A stretch of DNA of 48,442 nt from positions 1 through 48,442 of the forward strand of contig JAUIMK010000003.1 in the NCBI GenBank assembly GCA_030432735.1. Direction: 5' to 3'. A program made the translations under genes and the position numbers. Shown piece after piece: positions 35,211 to 42,058 of the stretch. The DNA comes from a bacterium (GTDB taxonomy: Bacteria; Myxococcota_A; UBA9160; UBA4427). Position 1 is the first letter of the stretch; every line of letters starts with the position of its first letter. The notes below the pieces were generated by a model that worked only from the letters and a program-made list of their open reading frames with translations, had not been told where the DNA came from and did no database searches.

Positions 35211-35477
35211 TCAGTCGGCGCGCCGGGAGTCCGTCTGCGCCGGCTTCTCCGCGCGGCGCCGCCCGCCGGACCGGACCGCGCGCAGCGGCTCGAGATCGGC
35301 CACCAGGAAGGGGCGGGTCACCCCGTTCTCGCCGTCGATCGCCACCTGGTGTCCCAGCACCGCGACGCCGGGCGCCTGGCTGCTCGGCGCGTCCGCGATG
35401 GTCCCTCGGGCGCCGGTGTACTCGTGGTTCGGGTTGATCACGCGGACGCGGTCGCCGCGGCGAAACGGGGAGCTCAT
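35211..35477 (-). CDS. Small SH3/KOW-like hypothetical protein
   Basis: FRRGDRVRVI...YTGARGTI...DLE pattern; GAGG SD. Confidence 0.7.
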   Translation of the reverse strand: MSSPFRRGDRVRVINPNHEYTGARGTIADAPSSQAPGVAVLGHQVAIDGENGVTRPFLVADLEPLRAVRSGGRRRAEKPAQTDSRRAD

Positions 35478-35568
35478 CGGGGATCCTCTCGGCGCCGAGC
35501 GGGGGGTGGCCCCGGCGCGGATCCGAGAGTGTTGCAGATCTCGCCGCCGTGCGGGAGAGCCGGGTCGC

Positions 35569-37659
35569 TCATCGCGCGGTGACCTCCTCCACGAGGGGCG
35601 ACGGCGTCCCCACGCTCGTCATCCAGAGCTGATGGACGGCGCGGGTCGCGGCAACGTGGAGCTGGCGCCGCGAGGCCGGCGTGTCGGGGTAGTGCTTCGC
35701 ATCGACGTCGAGCACGATCACGTAGTCGAACTCGAGGCCCTTCACCTGGGTGACCTCGGTGACCTCGATGCCCGCCTTGAAGGGGAACTCCCCGTCGCGG
35801 ATGCGCCGCAAGCGCGGCAGCTCCGCCCGCGCGAGCCCCTCGTAGTAGAGGTCGCTCGCGTGCTCGTTCGGCGTCAGCACCGCGACGCTCGCCAGGGGCT
35901 CCGTCGCCATCAGGTCCCGGAGCACGTCGGAGAGGAACGCGACGCAGGCGCCACGATCGGTCATCCGGAAGAGCTCGACCGGCGGCCCCGACCGCGTGGT
36001 CACGACTTCTTCGTCTTCCTGCAGATTTCCGAGCAGGGACGTCGCGAAGCGCATGACCTGCTCCGAGGATCGGTAGCTGACCTTGAGCGTCTCGATCTCG
36101 GCGCCTCCGAGCCCCAGCTCTTCGAAGAAGCCGGTCCAGCTCGTGAAGCCGGAGTTCTCCATCAGGTGCTGCTGGGTATCGCCCGAGAGCGTGATGCTCG
36201 ACTCGCGCTCCATGCACTCGAGCAGCACGCGCACCTCGATCGGCGCGAAGTCCTGGACCTCGTCGATCGCGATGTGACGAAGCCGGAGCGGGCGCTTGCC
36301 GCGCTCGAGCGGGCCGATCCTGCGCTGCCAAGCGCGAAGGAGGAGCGCATCGTCCTCCGCGTCGAGGCCGGCGTCCGCCTCTTCGTCCCCCGCCTGGAAC
36401 TCCGAGATCGCCTCGAGGCGCCGGCGATTCCAGTCCACGAATCGGTCGAGCTCGCTGTCGCTGAAGGCCCCGGGTGCCACCTCGGCGAAGACGTCCCCGA
36501 GCAGCCGCCGTTGCGTGAGCACGCTCGCCCAGTCGTCCGTCGCCTGGTCGACGGTCCGGCCACCGGGCACCCGGGCGACCTGTCTCTCGAGGGCGACGTC
36601 GAGCGCGGAGTGGAGCTTGATGCGCTGGACGACGGCGGGCGTGTCCTCGCGCTGCGCGTTCGGAAGGCGCGGGAAGTGGCGCTTGCGTTCCTCGAGGATC
36701 CAGTCGCGATAGGTGGTGATCCGGACGCCTTCCAGTCCCAGGGAGGGGAGGACGTGCGCGACGTAGCGCGCCAGCGCACGCGAGAAGACGACCACGAGCG
36801 TATCCGGCCCGTCGATCCGCTCGTCGGCGTAGGCGAGGTACGCGATCCGGTGGAGGGCCACCGTCGTCTTGCCGGATCCCGCGCTCCCGCGGATCACGAG
36901 GTAGCCGGCGGCCGGCCGGGTGATCAGGTCGAACTGGGTCGGGTCGATCAGACTCGTGATCTCGGGGAGATGTTTGTCGGCGCGAAGCGCCTCGCCCATC
37001 CGCCCCTCGCCCATCCTTCGCGTGAGGTCGAGGCTGTCCGCGTCGTAGCGGAGCGCCGCGGCCTCGCCGCCCGCGAGCTTCGGCGTCCCCGTCTCGTTGC
37101 GACGCCAGCCGGAAGGCATCGCCGCATCGAGGCTGTAGTCCCCTTCCGGCGCCTGCACGCGCTCGAGTACGCCGTCCCGGATCCGTACCATGCGGCGGGC
37201 CAGCACTTCCCCCGAGCGCTCGCGCCCGGAGATCTCCTCGTCGAATTCCTCGCCCTGACGGTAGCTGTAGAAGATCTTGCTGATCGGGGCGTCCCGCCAG
37301 TCGACGATGCGCAGCCCCTTCTCGAGGCAGGTCGTGTGGCCGAGGAAGAGGTCGCGCCGTCGGCCCTCCTCTTCGAGCCGCAGGTGCGCGAAGTACGGAG
37401 ACGCCGCATCGACCTGGACCGCCTGGCCCGCTCGGCGGAGCTGGTTCAGGATCGCGGACTGATTGTGGTACTGCTCGGTCAGCGCCGAGAGGTCCTTGTT
37501 CTCGTCCCCCGAGAGCAGCCGCTCGCGGATCCGCTCGAGCTCCTTGACGATCGGCGCTTCGCTCGCGGTCTTCGCCGGCGGGAGCGCAGCGAGCCTCCGC
37601 GAGACGTCCTCGAGCGCTTCGAGCTCCTCTCGAACGACCTCGTCCGGCCGATCGTCCAT
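35569..37659 (-). CDS. HelD-like SF1 ATPase (RNA polymerase recycling factor / UvrD-like)
   Basis: PYFAHL, IVDWRDAP, GSAGSGKTTVALHRIAYL, DEVQD, GDTQQ, SYRS, KGLEFD, VAATRA. Confidence 0.85.
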   Translation of the reverse strand: MDDRPDEVVREELEALEDVSRRLAALPPAKTASEAPIVKELERIRERLLSGDENKDLSALTEQYHNQSAILNQLRRAGQAVQVDAASPYFAHLRLEEEGRRRDLFLGHTTCLEKGLRIVDWRDAPISKIFYSYRQGEEFDEEISGRERSGEVLARRMVRIRDGVLERVQAPEGDYSLDAAMPSGWRRNETGTPKLAGGEAAALRYDADSLDLTRRMGEGRMGEALRADKHLPEITSLIDPTQFDLITRPAAGYLVIRGSAGSGKTTVALHRIAYLAYADERIDGPDTLVVVFSRALARYVAHVLPSLGLEGVRITTYRDWILEERKRHFPRLPNAQREDTPAVVQRIKLHSALDVALERQVARVPGGRTVDQATDDWASVLTQRRLLGDVFAEVAPGAFSDSELDRFVDWNRRRLEAISEFQAGDEEADAGLDAEDDALLLRAWQRRIGPLERGKRPLRLRHIAIDEVQDFAPIEVRVLLECMERESSITLSGDTQQHLMENSGFTSWTGFFEELGLGGAEIETLKVSYRSSEQVMRFATSLLGNLQEDEEVVTTRSGPPVELFRMTDRGACVAFLSDVLRDLMATEPLASVAVLTPNEHASDLYYEGLARAELPRLRRIRDGEFPFKAGIEVTEVTQVKGLEFDYVIVLDVDAKHYPDTPASRRQLHVAATRAVHQLWMTSVGTPSPLVEEVTAR

Positions 37660-37901
37660 CGCTGGCTGCCCCCCTGACTCGGCGATTGCCGGCTGTTCCC
37701 GGCTCGCGCTTCGCGGCCCGCCCCGGACGCGCGGAACGCCCCGAGACGACGGTCGCGCTCGCTGCGCCGCCGCCGCGAGGCGGTCTCTGTTTATACGCGC
37801 TTTTCGCGGGGCTGCCTAGCCTGTCGACCGCGTGGGGCGGAGCGAGGTGTGCTGCGCGTCACGACGCTGCCGCGCAGCCTTCGATCGTCTTCCGGGCGAG
37901 C

Positions 37902-38885
37902 TCAATCGACGAGGATGTCGCGCTCTTCCGGCGGGCGGGTTCCGAAGCTGAGCCCGATCCGGTACTCGCTGTCGGCGGTGTACCCGACCCAGCCGGCGCC
38001 GAGCCCCGCGGCCTCGGTCGCCTGCCGGGCGGTGCCATAGGCTTCGAAGCTGTCGTTCCAGACGTGGAACCGGACGAAGTCCCGACCGGGCCGTCGGCGC
38101 GCGAGCCATTGGCGCCACACCTCGCTGGTCGCGAGCCGCGCGGGCTCGATGCCCCGATCCGCGGGCGGCCAGTCGAGCCGCACGCGGTTCGGACGGCCGG
38201 GCTCGAGGAGCCAGCGGAATCCGTCGCTCCCGACGCGCCGCTTGCGGAGATAGAGCGCCGCCGACTCGAACTCGTCCTGCCGAAAGGCGCCACCCGAGGC
38301 ATCGGCCTTGAGCAGGCGGGCCAGGGCGTTCGTGCCTGCATCGAAGAGTGCCTTGCGATCGACGGGAAAGACCCGGCCGTGCCGGACGAGCACCCAGGAC
38401 TCGAGTCCCCGCTCGACCCGGGGGTCGGGAAGGCGGGCGACGCGCTCCTTCGCGACGGTCCGGAGGGCGTCTTCGCGAACGCGCCGATCGTCGAGGGCGC
38501 GCCGCGCGTCGAGATTCTCCCGACGAAGCGTAGACAGCCGCGCGAGCTTCTCGGACACGCCCTCGGCGTCGATGCGAGCCGCCGGTCCGAGGTCGTCGAT
38601 CGCGTCGAGGATCTCGTCCGCCAGCGCGACCGCCTCCGCGTCCACGCGCAGGCCGCGCGCCGCGAGCGCCTCCGTCCGGGCCTCCAGCGCGCCCTGTCGT
38701 TCCGGAATCGACGAGACGAAATCCTGCTCCGCCGCGAGCTGCTCGGCCTGGCGCCGGAGCACCCGGTCGAGGGCGCCGCCGAGCTCGATCTGCGTCAGGG
38801 CGAGCACGATCACGAGGATGCCCACCACGTTCGACAACGTGTCGACGAGCGGTCCGAGATTGTCCGCGAGGGCCCGCCGCCTCAT
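37902..38885 (-). CDS. Single-TM coiled-coil protein, ExbD/TolR-like (TM Asp present)
   Basis: N-terminal LGPLVDTLSNVVGILVIVLAL, coiled coil, C-terminal VRFHVWNDSFEAY...AAGLGAGW resembling the ExbD periplasmic fold. Confidence 0.65.
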   Translation of the reverse strand: MRRRALADNLGPLVDTLSNVVGILVIVLALTQIELGGALDRVLRRQAEQLAAEQDFVSSIPERQGALEARTEALAARGLRVDAEAVALADEILDAIDDLGPAARIDAEGVSEKLARLSTLRRENLDARRALDDRRVREDALRTVAKERVARLPDPRVERGLESWVLVRHGRVFPVDRKALFDAGTNALARLLKADASGGAFRQDEFESAALYLRKRRVGSDGFRWLLEPGRPNRVRLDWPPADRGIEPARLATSEVWRQWLARRRPGRDFVRFHVWNDSFEAYGTARQATEAAGLGAGWVGYTADSEYRIGLSFGTRPPEERDILVD

Positions 38886-38907
38886 CGGCGCTCCCCTGCC
38901 CGTGCCC

Positions 38908-39681
38908 TCAAGGCGCCGCCTCCGAGCGACGCAGCAATCGCCAGTCGAGCTCGCCGTCGCCGGGCAGCGGAAGCCGCGCGACCCGGATCCCGGCCTCCCG
39001 CGCGACACGAACGGTCGCGCGCGAGGTGGGCAACCCGTCCGGCCGCACGAGCAGCACCAGGAGCGCCGACGGCTCCGCGCTCACCCGGCGCAGATAGCGG
39101 CCGAAATCCCCGTCCCGCGCGATCGCGTCCGCGGGCACGAAGTAGCGGAAGTCGTCCGTGACGCGGAGCGCGGTGATCCCGCCGTCGTCGCACTCGATGA
39201 AGAAGGGCTGCCAGCGTCCGGAGAGATCCGTCGGATCGATCAGGATGGGCAGCGTCTCCCGTCGCGACTCGAGGACCGCGAGGCTCGTCTCGACGTCGCC
39301 CCGCTCCGCATCGATCTGCTCGGCCTCCGTCCGGGCCGCGGCGAGCGCCTCGTCGATCGCCTCGGCCCGCGCCGCCTCCCGCAGCCGGTCGGTGATCGCC
39401 TCGAGATCCGCGTCGGGCGCGAGACCGAGCGCCGGGATCGCGCGGTCCACGTCTTCCCATCGCTCGACCGCCCGCTCGATTTCCGCGAGCTCGGCCTCGA
39501 AGCGGGCGCGCTCGACGGCGAGCGCTTCGCGACGTTGCTGCCCCTCGGTCTGCGCGCTGCGGCTCGTGTCGACCGCGGCCAGGGCCATCACGGCGAGGAG
39601 CACGACGAGCGCGCCGATCGTACACGCCAGCACGCTCATGAAGGGGAAGAGCGCGGACGGCAGGCCGTCACGACGCGCCAT
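38908..39681 (-). CDS. Single-TM coiled-coil protein, ExbD/TolR-like (no TM Asp)
   Basis: N-terminal ALFPFMSVLACTIGALVVLL, coiled coil, C-terminal LVLLVRPDG...AREAGIRVARLP. Confidence 0.65.
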   Translation of the reverse strand: MARRDGLPSALFPFMSVLACTIGALVVLLAVMALAAVDTSRSAQTEGQQRREALAVERARFEAELAEIERAVERWEDVDRAIPALGLAPDADLEAITDRLREAARAEAIDEALAAARTEAEQIDAERGDVETSLAVLESRRETLPILIDPTDLSGRWQPFFIECDDGGITALRVTDDFRYFVPADAIARDGDFGRYLRRVSAEPSALLVLLVRPDGLPTSRATVRVAREAGIRVARLPLPGDGELDWRLLRRSEAAP

Positions 39682-39684
39682 CGC

Positions 39685-40674
39685 CTAGACGTCCGCCCCA
39701 CTGCTCGAGGCGCCGACCTGCTCGAGGAGCTTGCGGGCCACTGCAGCGATCGTCTCGTCTTCACCGCCACCGGATTCGCGCAGACGCGGGACCAGCCACT
39801 CGGCGCAGTAGTCGTCGACCGCGCCGACGAGCCCCTCCTCCATGCGCTGGACGATGCTCGCTGGGAACATGATCACGATGCTGAGGACGAGGGCGAGCAG
39901 GGTCGTATCGAACGCGATTCCAAGCCCTCCCGTCACCGACCCGATCGACGCCTTCAACCCCTCGAGGCTCGCAGCGCTCTCGAGGCTCTCGGAGAAGCCG
40001 CCCACCGCCGCGCCGAGGCCGAGGACGGTGCCGATGAAGCCGAGGGTCGGGACGGCCCAGACGAAGACGCGCACGAGGGCGTAGCTCGCGTCGACACGTC
40101 CTTCGTCGGCGGCGGACTCGGAGGCGAGGAATCCCTGAACCGCGGAGATCCGTGGCCGCACCTCGAACTGGCGGAGCGCGCGATCGAGGCGCGCCACCAG
40201 GAAGGCATCGGCGGACTCGCCGGCGCGGGTCGCGAGCTCGCGCCGCAGCGCACCCGCCCGCTCGGGCCGGATCCCGGTCTCGGACTCGGCGGCGAAGAGA
40301 TCGACCCCGAGGATCCGGGTCTCGGAGCGGAGACGCGCCCAGCGTGCGCCGATCAGCAGCAGCGCCCAGGCCGAGGCGGTCGTGATCAGGACCGGAACGA
40401 ACCCCCGCTCCAGGAAGAGCTCGCCGATCCGGCCCGCCGGAATCGCCTGGAGCAATGAATAGAAGACGAGCGTGAAGACGACGGCGCCGAGCGCCGGGAG
40501 CCAGTCCGCTCCCTCCCCGGGTGCGCGACGCGGACGCAGACGATCGCCTGCCCCGGTGCCGCGGTCGACGTGCGCCGCCAGGCAGGACTGTCCGCAGCTC
40601 GCACAACGCAGCACATCCGCTTCCCCCGTCGGAGCGAGGGCGATCTCGTCACAATGCGGACAGGGCCTGTCCAT
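39685..40674 (-). CDS. MotA/TolQ/ExbB proton-channel family protein with N-terminal Zn ribbon
   Basis: CPHC...CASC; PTLGFIGTVLGL and GLGIAFDTTLLAL channel helices; GGGAGG SD. Confidence 0.88.
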   Translation of the reverse strand: MDRPCPHCDEIALAPTGEADVLRCASCGQSCLAAHVDRGTGAGDRLRPRRAPGEGADWLPALGAVVFTLVFYSLLQAIPAGRIGELFLERGFVPVLITTASAWALLLIGARWARLRSETRILGVDLFAAESETGIRPERAGALRRELATRAGESADAFLVARLDRALRQFEVRPRISAVQGFLASESAADEGRVDASYALVRVFVWAVPTLGFIGTVLGLGAAVGGFSESLESAASLEGLKASIGSVTGGLGIAFDTTLLALVLSIVIMFPASIVQRMEEGLVGAVDDYCAEWLVPRLRESGGGEDETIAAVARKLLEQVGASSSGADV

Positions 40675-40777
40675 CCAGCCTCCCCTGGGATCGACGGGAA
40701 GACTAGGCCCTCGTCGGCCGCGGCGCCGCGAGGACGGCAGACACCCCCCTTCCCCTCGCCGCGCTAGCCTGCGCGGG

Positions 40778-42058
40778 ATGTCCGGCCCCCGCGTCCCGAG
40801 TCGCGCCCAGCTGAAGCGCATCCTCGACCTGCCCGCGAACGCGCGCCGGGACGAGATCGTCGCCGCGCTCGATCGACTCGTCGCCGCGCTCCGCGCACGA
40901 AGCGCGATGCCCGATACGAGCGCCTCGGAGCGGGACGCCCTCGAGGTCGAGATCGAGCGCCTCGAGGCCGCGCGGCCGCGCACCGTTGCGGCGCGCCCGG
41001 ACCGACTGCCGCTCGTCGGTGCCCTCCTCGGGACCGCGGTCGCGCTGGCGGCCCTGTTCCTGACCTACGGCGGCGGGGACGACCGCGGCGAGCGTGTCCC
41101 CGGCGTCGCGCTGGCCGAGAAGCCTCGACTCGAGATCGAAGGACCGCTGCCGATGGCGACGCTGCGCGTCCTCGACGCGGACCGCACGACCCTCATCGCC
41201 GAGATGCGCGCCGAGGGGGCCGTCCTCGAGCTGGACCGCGGGCGCTATGCGCTCGAGGTCCAGCGCCCCGGATGCGACGAGGTCTGGTCCCGGTCGGCCT
41301 ACTTCGCGCCGGGAACGGTCCACCGATTCGCGCCCACCCTCTGCTCCGGCGAAGGTCGTCTCGTCGTCCGCTCGAACGTGCCCGACGGCCGCCTTCGCAT
41401 CGACGGGGACGTCGTCGGCGCCCCCGGCGACAAGGCTCACGTCCTCCCCGTCGGCGAGCACGAGATCAGCGTCGAGCGCGAGGGCTTCCGGCGCTGGGTC
41501 GAGCGGGTCCGCGTCGCGCCCGATGCCCGGCTCGAGCGGATGGCCCTGCTCCTGCCCGAGCGCGACGAGACGCCGCGCCCTCGGCAGCTCGATCTCGGCT
41601 TCGATGCGACCACGCTGGCGCCGCCGCCCCCTCCGGCTCCGACCCCCTTCGACATGGGGGATCTCGCGGATCAGGTCGCCCCCCAGAAGAGCGGGCGACC
41701 CTCGACGCGTCTGCTCGAACGCGCCGGTCTCGGCGGACTCCCGGACGGCGGCTCCACCGCCTGGCACGACCGCGTCCGCAAGGAGTTCCTCACCCGCTTC
41801 GATCGCGACGTCTCGGGTCGGATCGATCGCGTCGAGGAGAGCGAGGCCATCTCCTGTGCCTGGTGGCGCGAGACCGAACAGAGCTTCGACGAGGGCGGAC
41901 TCGGCCTCTCGATGGCGCGCTACTACGGATTCGACGGCAGCGAATGGCATCCCGCGGCCCTGGGCTTCGCGCGCGATCTGCGCAGCGTCGCGTACGAGCG
42001 GATGCGGGCGTGCGGGCTCCAGGCCCGCGCGCTGCGAGCCCCTTCGGCCCGGATCTAG
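40778..42058 (+). CDS. Membrane-anchored PEGA-domain protein with Pro-rich linker and EF-hand-like C-terminal motif
   Basis: One TM helix; GRLVVRSNVPDGRLRIDG...LPVGEHEISVEREGF (PEGA); APPPPPAPTP; FDRDVSGRIDRVEE. Confidence 0.78.
   Translation: MSGPRVPSRAQLKRILDLPANARRDEIVAALDRLVAALRARSAMPDTSASERDALEVEIERLEAARPRTVAARPDRLPLVGALLGTAVALAALFLTYGGGDDRGERVPGVALAEKPRLEIEGPLPMATLRVLDADRTTLIAEMRAEGAVLELDRGRYALEVQRPGCDEVWSRSAYFAPGTVHRFAPTLCSGEGRLVVRSNVPDGRLRIDGDVVGAPGDKAHVLPVGEHEISVEREGFRRWVERVRVAPDARLERMALLLPERDETPRPRQLDLGFDATTLAPPPPPAPTPFDMGDLADQVAPQKSGRPSTRLLERAGLGGLPDGGSTAWHDRVRKEFLTRFDRDVSGRIDRVEESEAISCAWWRETEQSFDEGGLGLSMARYYGFDGSEWHPAALGFARDLRSVAYERMRACGLQARALRAPSARI

Follow-up and report, generated by a model that had tools for sequence, protein, structure and literature searches.

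Flagella, gliding, type IX secretion and Zorya defence run on 5:2 ion-driven motors of the MotA/TolQ/ExbB class, as do outer-membrane uptake and the maintenance of envelope integrity, and each new branch so far has revealed a new use of membrane potential outside the cytoplasm. Here we analyse three adjacent genes, called A, B and C, in a stretch of 48,442 nucleotides of DNA from a bacterium of the Myxococcota_A (contig JAUIMK010000003.1 of assembly GCA_030432735.1); this whole stretch is referred to as the window. The best-supported reading of A-B-C is an unnamed new branch of MotA/TolQ/ExbB ion-driven motors. We consider it reasonably probable that the locus encodes a new variant of the 5:2 type with a chemically asymmetric B-C axle. 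A further-reaching proposal, which we regard as a serious but tentative possibility, is a natural A5:B1:C1 rotary motor that works on a single axle Asp and stands as a branch of its own next to Mot, Tol, Ton, Agl, Gld and Zor, with an output of its own by way of the zinc ribbon or tail of A or of the stalked TolR-like B-C head, in Planctomycetota, Verrucomicrobiota and one family of Myxococcota.

Several described systems are close enough to guide this comparison. AglQ and AglS of Myxococcus are short canonical TolR/ExbD proteins. GldL has two helices, and the charge pair of its motor is formed by a GldL Glu with a GldM Arg. The available part of PMC12204202 proposes motors of the tolQ-like type whose two partners are heterologous pore-helix proteins, each contributing one Asp of a pair and ending in a vWA domain. 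It also describes TPR-tolQ-tolR-tolR-vWA clusters in the Planctomycetes-Verrucomicrobia-Chlamydiae (PVC) group, and its proposals rest on synteny and AlphaFold3. According to PMC12505986, non-flagellar MotAB relatives are structurally diverse; zinc ribbons, coiled coils and heterodimers go unmentioned in the portion of that paper at hand. Full-text literature searches returned no description of an A-B-C module and no match that would assign it to an already described system.

The A-B-C locus

The three genes follow one another on the minus strand in the order A, B, C:

Gene A, 39685..40674, minus strand: 329 amino acids, ATG at 40674, within an open frame at 39685-40983.
Gene B, 38908..39681, minus strand: open reading frame (ORF) of 257 amino acids.
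Gene C, 37902..38885, minus strand: 327 amino acids, ATG at 38885, within an open frame at 37902-39008.

Homologues begin at those methionines, which supports the shorter starts of A and C. With the chosen starts, the intergenic gaps are 3 bp between A and B and 22 bp between B and C. These coordinates and starts agree with the tightly packed arrangement reported in a preliminary description of the locus, which was made from the sequence alone. The window has a G+C content of ~70% and therefore contains many shadow ORFs that overlap A, B and C. Among the overlapping frames of the region, homologues were found only for the A, B and C frames, and the best of these reach expectation values (E) of 3.8e-176 for C and 1.7e-124 for B. 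Because homologues reach such values, A, B and C are read as real genes rather than chance ORFs.

A divergent channel subunit

Gene A encodes a divergent four-helix protein of the MotA/TolQ/ExbB family, as the channel motifs picked out in the preliminary description had indicated. Its match to the Pfam family PF01618 (MotA_ExbB), for which the cut-off is 22.9 bits, has an E of 3.6e-8 and a score of 33.6 bits (35.1 in the genome scan). The same family is above cut-off in all six A homologues scanned from PVC loci (31.9-43.2 bits). In its own genome, A is the weakest of ten PF01618 matches over the cut-off, with ~35 bits against 75-115 for the others, and an eleventh match falls below the cut-off. 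When 28 A homologues are compared by hhalign with the nine canonical members of the genome, they align at a probability of 92.9% (E 3.8e-7, 75 columns), and the aligned region corresponds to the last two membrane helices.

This alignment places T216 of A (in PTLGFIGTV) and T258 (in AFDTT) on the conserved Thr of the canonical GLLGTV and AL-x-TT motifs. The assignment of the A Thr as pore-lining draws on the available part of PMC12204202 and on general background. A has not retained the Glu found in the canonical S-E-A-L motif, and an invariant Asp256 lies three residues further on. Across 28 sequences from three phyla, residues C5, C8, C24, C27, T216, D256, T257 and T258 are invariant. A hydropathy scan gives four hydrophobic helices in A, at residues 60-78, 92-110, 200-218 and 257-275, and the tail beyond the last helix is ~45 residues long. 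Two parts of the protein are used in the argument below:

Zinc ribbon of A, 40585..40674, minus strand: Cys4 (C5, C8, C24, C27), presumed cytoplasmic, from Cys conservation.
MotA_ExbB core of A, 39826..40200, minus strand: residues 159-283 with PxLGFxGTV and AFDTT, from Pfam and alignments.

The four Cys residues are at least 95% conserved in 59 homologues, and the N-terminus of A weakly matches zinc ribbons among both PDB sequences and Pfam families. Zinc ribbons are also the only matches of the A profile among solved-structure sequences, at a best E of 0.029.

Homologues of A in Planctomycetota and Verrucomicrobiota are longer, at 370-560 amino acids, and most carry an extra C-terminal helical stretch. 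This extra tail of ~150-200 residues, which gives weak Pfam hits of the apolipoprotein or coiled-coil type, is absent in the A of the window. Long examples of ~500-560 amino acids are found at L036:5180-6709, L045:5321-7000, L053:5618-7180 and L074:5697-7193.

The two partner proteins

B and C share one architecture. Both have an Arg-rich N-terminus followed by a single hydrophobic helix, at residues 17-35 in B and 13-31 in C on the Kyte-Doolittle scale. Because the Arg-rich segment precedes the single helix, the sequences suggest that the N-terminus is inside, which is the ExbD/TolR type of orientation. The AlphaFold2 model of B has a mean predicted local distance difference test score (pLDDT) of 82.4, with helices at 12-84 and 93-143 followed by an alpha/beta domain. 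That of C has a mean of 82.2, with helices at 11-76, 83-98 and 107-143 and again an alpha/beta domain. Hydropathy scan and models thus agree with the earlier assignment of one N-terminal membrane helix and a long helical stretch to each protein, and ~110 helical residues separate the membrane helix from the alpha/beta head. The parts of the two proteins are as follows:

Membrane helix of B, 39574..39657, minus strand: invariant LFPF-x-S-x-LAC-x-IG with Ser16, from alignments.
Helical stalk of B, 39253..39573, minus strand: presumed periplasmic (to residue 84; 93-143), from the AlphaFold2 model.
C-terminal domain of B, 38962..39243, minus strand: TolR-like alpha/beta domain, residues 147-240, from fold searches.
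Membrane helix of C, 38784..38861, minus strand: L-x-D-T-x-x-N-x-V-G with Asp15, from alignments.
Helical stalk of C, 38457..38783, minus strand: presumed periplasmic (to residue 76; 83-98; 107-143), from the AlphaFold2 model.
C-terminal domain of C, 37905..38438, minus strand: alpha/beta domain, residues 150-327, from the AlphaFold2 model.

Both membrane motifs pointed out at the start, FPFMSVLAC in B and PLVDTLSN in C, are present and conserved. Asp15 of C is presumed to be the ion-binding residue, and it is near-invariant. In an alignment of the window's C with 148 of its best 150 profile hits (at least 280 amino acids), 143 of the 149 sequences carry Asp at position 15, and the remainder are four gaps, one Asn and one Gly. 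It is invariant in a set of 35 sequences, and the Asp is present in 68 of the 68 loci where the motif was recovered. By hhalign, D15 also aligns, weakly, with the Asp of the genome's own ExbD proteins (E 1.3e-3 and 6e-4).

At the matching position 16 of B, Ser is found in 61 of 66 sequences and Asp in the other five. The B-Asp loci are L032, L040, L055, L063 and L072, where FPFLDIL replaces FPFLSIL or FPFMSVL. C also has its Asp in all three of these loci in which the C motif was recovered. The claim that only one of the two partners carries a membrane Asp therefore describes the majority, but it is not a rule. The B-Asp minority clade is labelled Planctomycetota or Pirellulales, together with one Chitinophagaceae bin.

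Judged from their profiles, B and C are distant paralogues. In hhalign comparisons, their C-terminal parts align at E 4.7e-5 (probability 68%) and their N-terminal 45 residues at E 6.6e-5 (probability 64%), with D15 of C opposite S16 of B. In addition, B ORFs match the C profile at E values of 1e-5 to 1e-13. The simplest account of these sequences is that the ancestor of B and C had an Asp in its pore helix and that this Asp has disappeared from B in most lineages, and the five of 66 B sequences that have Asp fit such a loss.

Elsewhere in the same genome, outside the window, contig C189 (L098:3138-4833) carries genes for two TPR proteins, a MotA_ExbB protein of 216 amino acids and two ExbD proteins in succession. 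Asn takes the place of the membrane Asp in the first of these ExbD proteins, unlike in the seven others that the genome encodes, which keep the Asp. Because of this Asn, canonical TolR/ExbD pairs with a single Asp can be said to occur in the genome as well. The arrangement resembles the TPR-tolQ-tolR-tolR clusters in the available text of PMC12204202, and a 466-amino-acid ORF that follows the ExbD pair gave no Pfam hit.

Fold searches with the models indicate that the C-terminal domain of B is TolR-like. In Foldseek, E. coli TolR (5by4) ranks first at E 6.2e-4 and is the sole hit at E <= 0.001; ExbD (8pek) appears at rank 34. A VIA-align search of 48161 representative chains, which is independent of Foldseek, also ranks TolR 5by4 first of 48161 (Z 8.0, root mean square deviation (rmsd) 3.2 A, 87 of 105 residues). 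Against the ExbD proteins of the genome, hhalign gives E 0.41 for B; the alignment of its C-terminal domain with them is topologically sensible though not significant.

The C-terminal domain of C has a pLDDT >90 over most of its length and an invariant W-x-D-S-F-x-x-Y...R...W motif. From its model, a TolR/ExbD-like core with an insertion is possible. When Foldseek's 999 best chains were rescored, ExbD 8pek and TolR 5by4 took ranks 2-3 with a weak Z of 4.0 in both cases (rmsd 3.5 A over 85 aligned residues and 3.3 A over 84, respectively).

Neither B nor C matches a Pfam or NCBIfam family at E <= 0.1, coiled-coil noise aside, and the Pfam ExbD model matches eight other genes of the genome, none of them in the window. 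Among solved-structure sequences, the C profile finds only coiled-coil noise (best E 0.11). The 190 clusters of B homologues at E <= 0.001 are all hypothetical or incidentally named. In the ESM Atlas, all 30 nearest clusters of each of the two proteins are hypothetical and without Pfam assignment, and most are from Planctomycetota or Verrucomicrobiota. A search of 1.84 billion representatives of clusters at 50% identity with the C profile returned 2117 proteins at E <= 0.001, of which 709 reach 1e-10 and 275 reach 1e-30.

Two irregular forms of C were seen among the homologues. One protein of 533 amino acids, P0101, looked like a fusion of a B tail with C; it contains garbled stretches and is most likely a frameshifted gene call. 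In one genome of the window's genus, C is represented by two adjacent matches to profile positions 2-112 and 88-330 (G368:C1:562621-563644), which suggests a frameshift or an assembly error.

A predicted B-C complex

B and C, each supplied with its own alignment, are predicted to bind each other, with a score of 0.74 in the median run (0.73, 0.74 and 0.74 in the three), and the best of three controls scored 0.00. The calibration mark for this score is reached by 116 of 157 solved complexes and by 2 of 215 mismatched pairs, counts that are only rough for B+C because custom alignments were used. The runs have at least 81% of their contacts in common, and the pLDDT of the partner is at least 75. 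None of the outcomes that would have refuted the preliminary description was seen: the C-terminal domain of B is TolR-like, Asp15 of C is near-invariant, the predicted B-C pairing came out well above its controls and the literature searches returned no description of the system.

The confident interface joins residues 90-141 of B with 99-144 of C in parallel register, and the linkers also join. It extends to the heads, where residues 207-218 and 233-241 of B pack against 275-284, 299-303 and 327 of C. It includes the most conserved patch of C, W276-x-D278-S-F280-x-x-Y283. These predictions support a B-C heterodimer, although they do not show it as preferred over homodimers.

A proposed motor and its main alternative

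We infer a motor of 5:1:1 stoichiometry, with ion flow, rotation, anchoring and output arranged as follows. A would form the channel ring, a pentamer by analogy with related motors. B and C, each composed of an N-in pore helix of the ExbD/TolR type, a stalk and a head, would sit as a heterodimer at the centre of this ring and pair through their second stalk helices and C-terminal domains. Protons or another ion would pass by way of Asp15 of C, opposite Thr216 and Thr258 in A. With Ser16 at its matching position, B would make the axle chemically asymmetric, and an additional charge may come from Asp256 of A. The stalk would end in the TolR-like B-C head, which may grip the cell wall or a periplasmic partner, such that the A ring and the B-C axle turn against each other. 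Work could be done either in the periplasm or on the cytoplasmic face of A, which presumably bears the zinc ribbon and, in Planctomycetota and Verrucomicrobiota, the extra tail.

A number of results weigh against this proposal. The Pfam ExbD family (PF02472) matches neither B nor C at E <= 0.1, nor two C homologues from PVC loci at E <= 0.05, and hhalign aligns the B and C C-terminal domains with ExbD proteins of the genome at non-significant values (E 0.16 and 0.17). Among solved-structure sequences, no MotA, ExbB, TolQ or ZorA chain matches the A profile at E <= 1. For C, the Z of 4.0 to ExbD and TolR is weak and tied with an RNase-H-like Holliday-junction resolvase and ribosomal S11. Foldseek with the whole C model gives nothing at E <= 0.001, and the wide VIA-align list for that model is filled by coiled coils over residues 5-80. 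Because coiled coils filled this list, the C-terminal domain was barely probed in whole-model searches. The original assignment of an ExbD/TolR-like fold to both C-terminal domains thus stands for B, where TolR ranks first with two aligners, but is weak for C.

Other points concern the architecture of the complex. In single-chain models each stalk folds as a helical hairpin of roughly 50 residues per arm. Because the stalks fold back in this way, the models do not support the earlier suggestion that they reach across the periplasm. The membrane helices of B and C are outside the confident contacts of the predicted complex, and the prediction covered the B+C pair only. Finally, we know of no characterised precedent for a rotary motor with a single Asp.

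Some of these facts could be accommodated by a different division of labour, in which C alone is an Asp-bearing homodimeric axle, as in ExbD2 and TolR2, and B is a peripheral force transducer outside the ring, comparable to TolA or TonB, with a long helical spacer and a head extending to some target in the periplasm or outer membrane. The Asp is missing from B in 61 of 66 sequences, and like TolA the protein is built from a membrane helix, long helices and a globular head. Since the confident B-C contacts are periplasmic and do not involve the membrane helices, B could bind C from outside the ring. However, B and C have paralogous membrane helices, with S16 of B at the Asp position (E 6.6e-5), and five loci keep an Asp in B. 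TonB and TolA need a His, according to the available part of PMC12204202 (SHLS motif), but the membrane region of B has no conserved His: in a 67-row alignment, His is never among the four commonest residues at positions 9-29. The B head is also TolR-like rather than TolA- or TonB-like. We therefore judge a transducer role for B unlikely, although it is the strongest competitor of the asymmetric B-C axle.

Distribution, gene order and neighbouring genes

A pattern scan with one genome per species yielded 78 loci. The order A-B-C on one strand is found in 57 of the 59 loci that have at least 2300 nt upstream of C, the exceptions being L034 and L051. By record title, 26 loci belong to Planctomycetota, Verrucomicrobiota or Victivallales and one to Chitinophagaceae, and these 27 are treated as the PVC-labelled group. 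The remaining loci come from Myxococcota or Deltaproteobacteria-type bins, some of them labelled Spirochaetaceae. The Myxococcota-type A-B-C-helicase contigs with a Spirochaetaceae title (L004, L007, L012, L013, L014, L029, L059 and L066) look like mislabelled bins, and one carries 'MYXO' in its isolate name.

The module is patchily distributed. Among 401 genomes sampled evenly from the window's phylum, 23 match C at E <= 1e-10. Of the 25 genomes of the window's own family 20 match, and few do elsewhere. For the phylum to which L053 belongs, Planctomycetota by title, a comparable sample gave 8 of 401. Three of the matching Planctomycetota genomes (G473, G498 and G747) carry the gene on a contig numbered 1, in one case of at least 7.17 Mb, and may be closed isolate genomes. 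These counts are lower bounds, with five candidates scored per genome.

Only A, B and C are conserved in the 27 PVC-labelled loci. Clustering of 3872 flanking ORFs of at least 90 amino acids revealed no fourth gene conserved across phyla, and the flanking clusters in PVC loci besides A, B and C are antisense shadow ORFs only. In the window, a Pfam scan of the neighbours covered a helicase, a UPF0047 protein, a peptidyl-prolyl isomerase-like protein and a PEGA protein. No tonB, tolA, tolB, pal or flagellar family was matched among them, as had been noted on first inspection. The helicase lies directly downstream of C:

HelD-like UvrD-family helicase, 35569..37659, minus strand: 696 amino acids, 242 bp downstream of C, from NCBIfam HelD_BACSU.

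Its match to HelD_BACSU is 168 bits, below the cut-off of 419. A helicase follows C in 38 loci as well as in the window, all outside the PVC-labelled group. Of the PVC-labelled loci, 22 (including one titled Chitinophagaceae) extend at least 2500 nt beyond C on the downstream side, and none of them has it; six other loci with enough flank lack it as well. On account of these absences it was rejected as a fourth core part. Because it travels with syntenic genes such as UPF0047, its position is read as inherited gene order in one lineage, and it is probably a lineage-specific neighbour rather than part of the core module.

The helicase and the patchy distribution would have a role if A-B-C were a Zorya-like envelope sensor or anti-phage system that detects damage to the envelope and signals through the cytoplasmic face of A, with the adjacent UvrD/HelD-like helicase as its effector in this Myxococcota lineage. 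The only defence-type hits of A are weak matches to ZorA (best E 8e-6 and 22.5 bits in PADLOC, 17.7 bits in NCBIfam), the A homologues of PVC loci have an additional C-terminal helical tail, and the helicase matches GajB-type and NERD+UvrD models of PADLOC. Set against this, the 17.7 bits to the ZorA model NF033915 compare with a cut-off of 100, and the PADLOC matches of at most 22.5 bits extend over only ~68 residues. ZorA also has a long cytoplasmic tail, where A of the window has ~45 residues after its last helix. In PADLOC, C has no hit and B has weak hits of the coiled-coil type only, and neither protein gave a hit to ZorB or to its peptidoglycan-binding OmpA-like domain. The best named match of the helicase is the RNA-polymerase recycling factor HelD, its absence from all 22 PVC-labelled loci and its company of housekeeping-type genes such as UPF0047 suggest inherited synteny within one family, and no other gene is conserved beside A-B-C across phyla. 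A defence function of this kind is improbable.

We think it just as doubtful that A-B-C is not a rotary motor at all and serves as a gated ion channel or a static envelope scaffold whose B-C coiled coils act as a spacer or ruler between inner membrane and cell wall: A is the weakest of the ten PF01618 matches over the cut-off and one of two axle positions has lost its Asp, but the motor-defining residues, the Thr in both pore helices of A together with the Asp of C, show the strongest conservation in the three proteins, which is hard to explain for a static scaffold.

On the other side of the module, a PEGA-domain protein is encoded divergently at 40472-42058 on the plus strand. In its longest form this ORF shares ~200 bp with the start of A, and because of this overlap its true start is probably further downstream. 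The PEGA gene upstream of A is conserved only in close Myxococcota-type loci.

Scans of 35300-41200 gave no promoter-like site and one plus-strand terminator-like site, which is no more than in shuffled sequences. Two metatranscriptome runs from one study contained 6-7% of the sampled words. Their contigs over the helicase, C, B and A are 151-442 nt long and 90-100% alike, and no contig spans a gene junction by 31 nt on both sides. DNA carry-over is possible in these data, which give no usable evidence of co-transcription or habitat.

Significance of a possible single-Asp motor

If the asymmetric B-C axle turns within an A ring, the consequences would extend beyond this locus. Current rotation models rely on two alternating Asp residues, and a working motor with a single Asp would for this reason be a natural experiment on stepping. 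The minority clade with two Asp residues would then provide a built-in comparison. The branch is large, with 709 C clusters at E <= 1e-10, and it has no family annotation. In Planctomycetota and Verrucomicrobiota, two phyla with a poorly understood envelope biology, A-B-C also offers a starting point for tracing an energy-dependent process of the envelope.

Comparison with known systems

The A-B-C module resembles TolQ-TolR(-TolA) and ExbB-ExbD(-TonB) in the order of its parts, with a gene for a MotA/TolQ/ExbB-family channel protein followed in an operon by genes for single-pass partners that are predicted to be N-in. Further likenesses are the P-[LF]-x-D motif in the pore helix of C, the TolR-like domain predicted for B and the pore-helix Thr of A. 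Unlike TolQR and ExbBD, it has two heterologous partners, neither of which matches Pfam ExbD. These have ~110 helical residues before the head, and one of them has Ser in place of Asp. A combines four helices with a zinc ribbon, and no TolA, TonB, TolB or Pal gene is adjacent, nor was one found conserved at A-B-C loci. Canonical sets are encoded elsewhere in the same genome, which has eight ExbD-type and nine ExbB-type matches.

The preliminary description also compared the locus with AglR-AglQ-AglS of Myxococcus. By analogy this comparison holds, in that one TolQ-like protein is combined with two different TolR-like subunits in both cases. It does not extend to the partners themselves, since B and C fail PF02472, are not TolR proteins of that type and carry long stalks. 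Within the window's phylum, moreover, A-B-C is largely restricted to one family, where 20 of 25 genomes have it, and most of the others sampled gave no match.

Similarity to GldL-GldM and PorL-PorM of type IX secretion lies in the general plan, a motor driven by ions with a single-pass partner that dimerises into a long periplasmic structure; B and C had no sequence or fold match to these proteins in the searches run. With ZorA-ZorB of Zorya, the module shares a divergent MotA-like subunit with weak ZorA matches, a C-terminal helical extension in PVC homologues and a patchy distribution. It differs from Zorya in its score (17.7 against 100 bits), in having two partner genes, and in lacking an OmpA-type ZorB and a conserved effector gene.

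The tolQ-like motors of PMC12204202, compared here from the available text of that paper, are the nearest published relatives in concept. In both, an uncharacterised TolQ-like motor would have two different partners that insert an Asp-bearing helix in the ring, and both occur in Verrucomicrobia and Planctomycetes. B and C gave no vWA family hit at E <= 0.1, and their fold searches contained no vWA match. In contrast to the vWA motors, the heads of the A-B-C module are TolR-like by their models, its stalks are helical and the pair usually carries one Asp.

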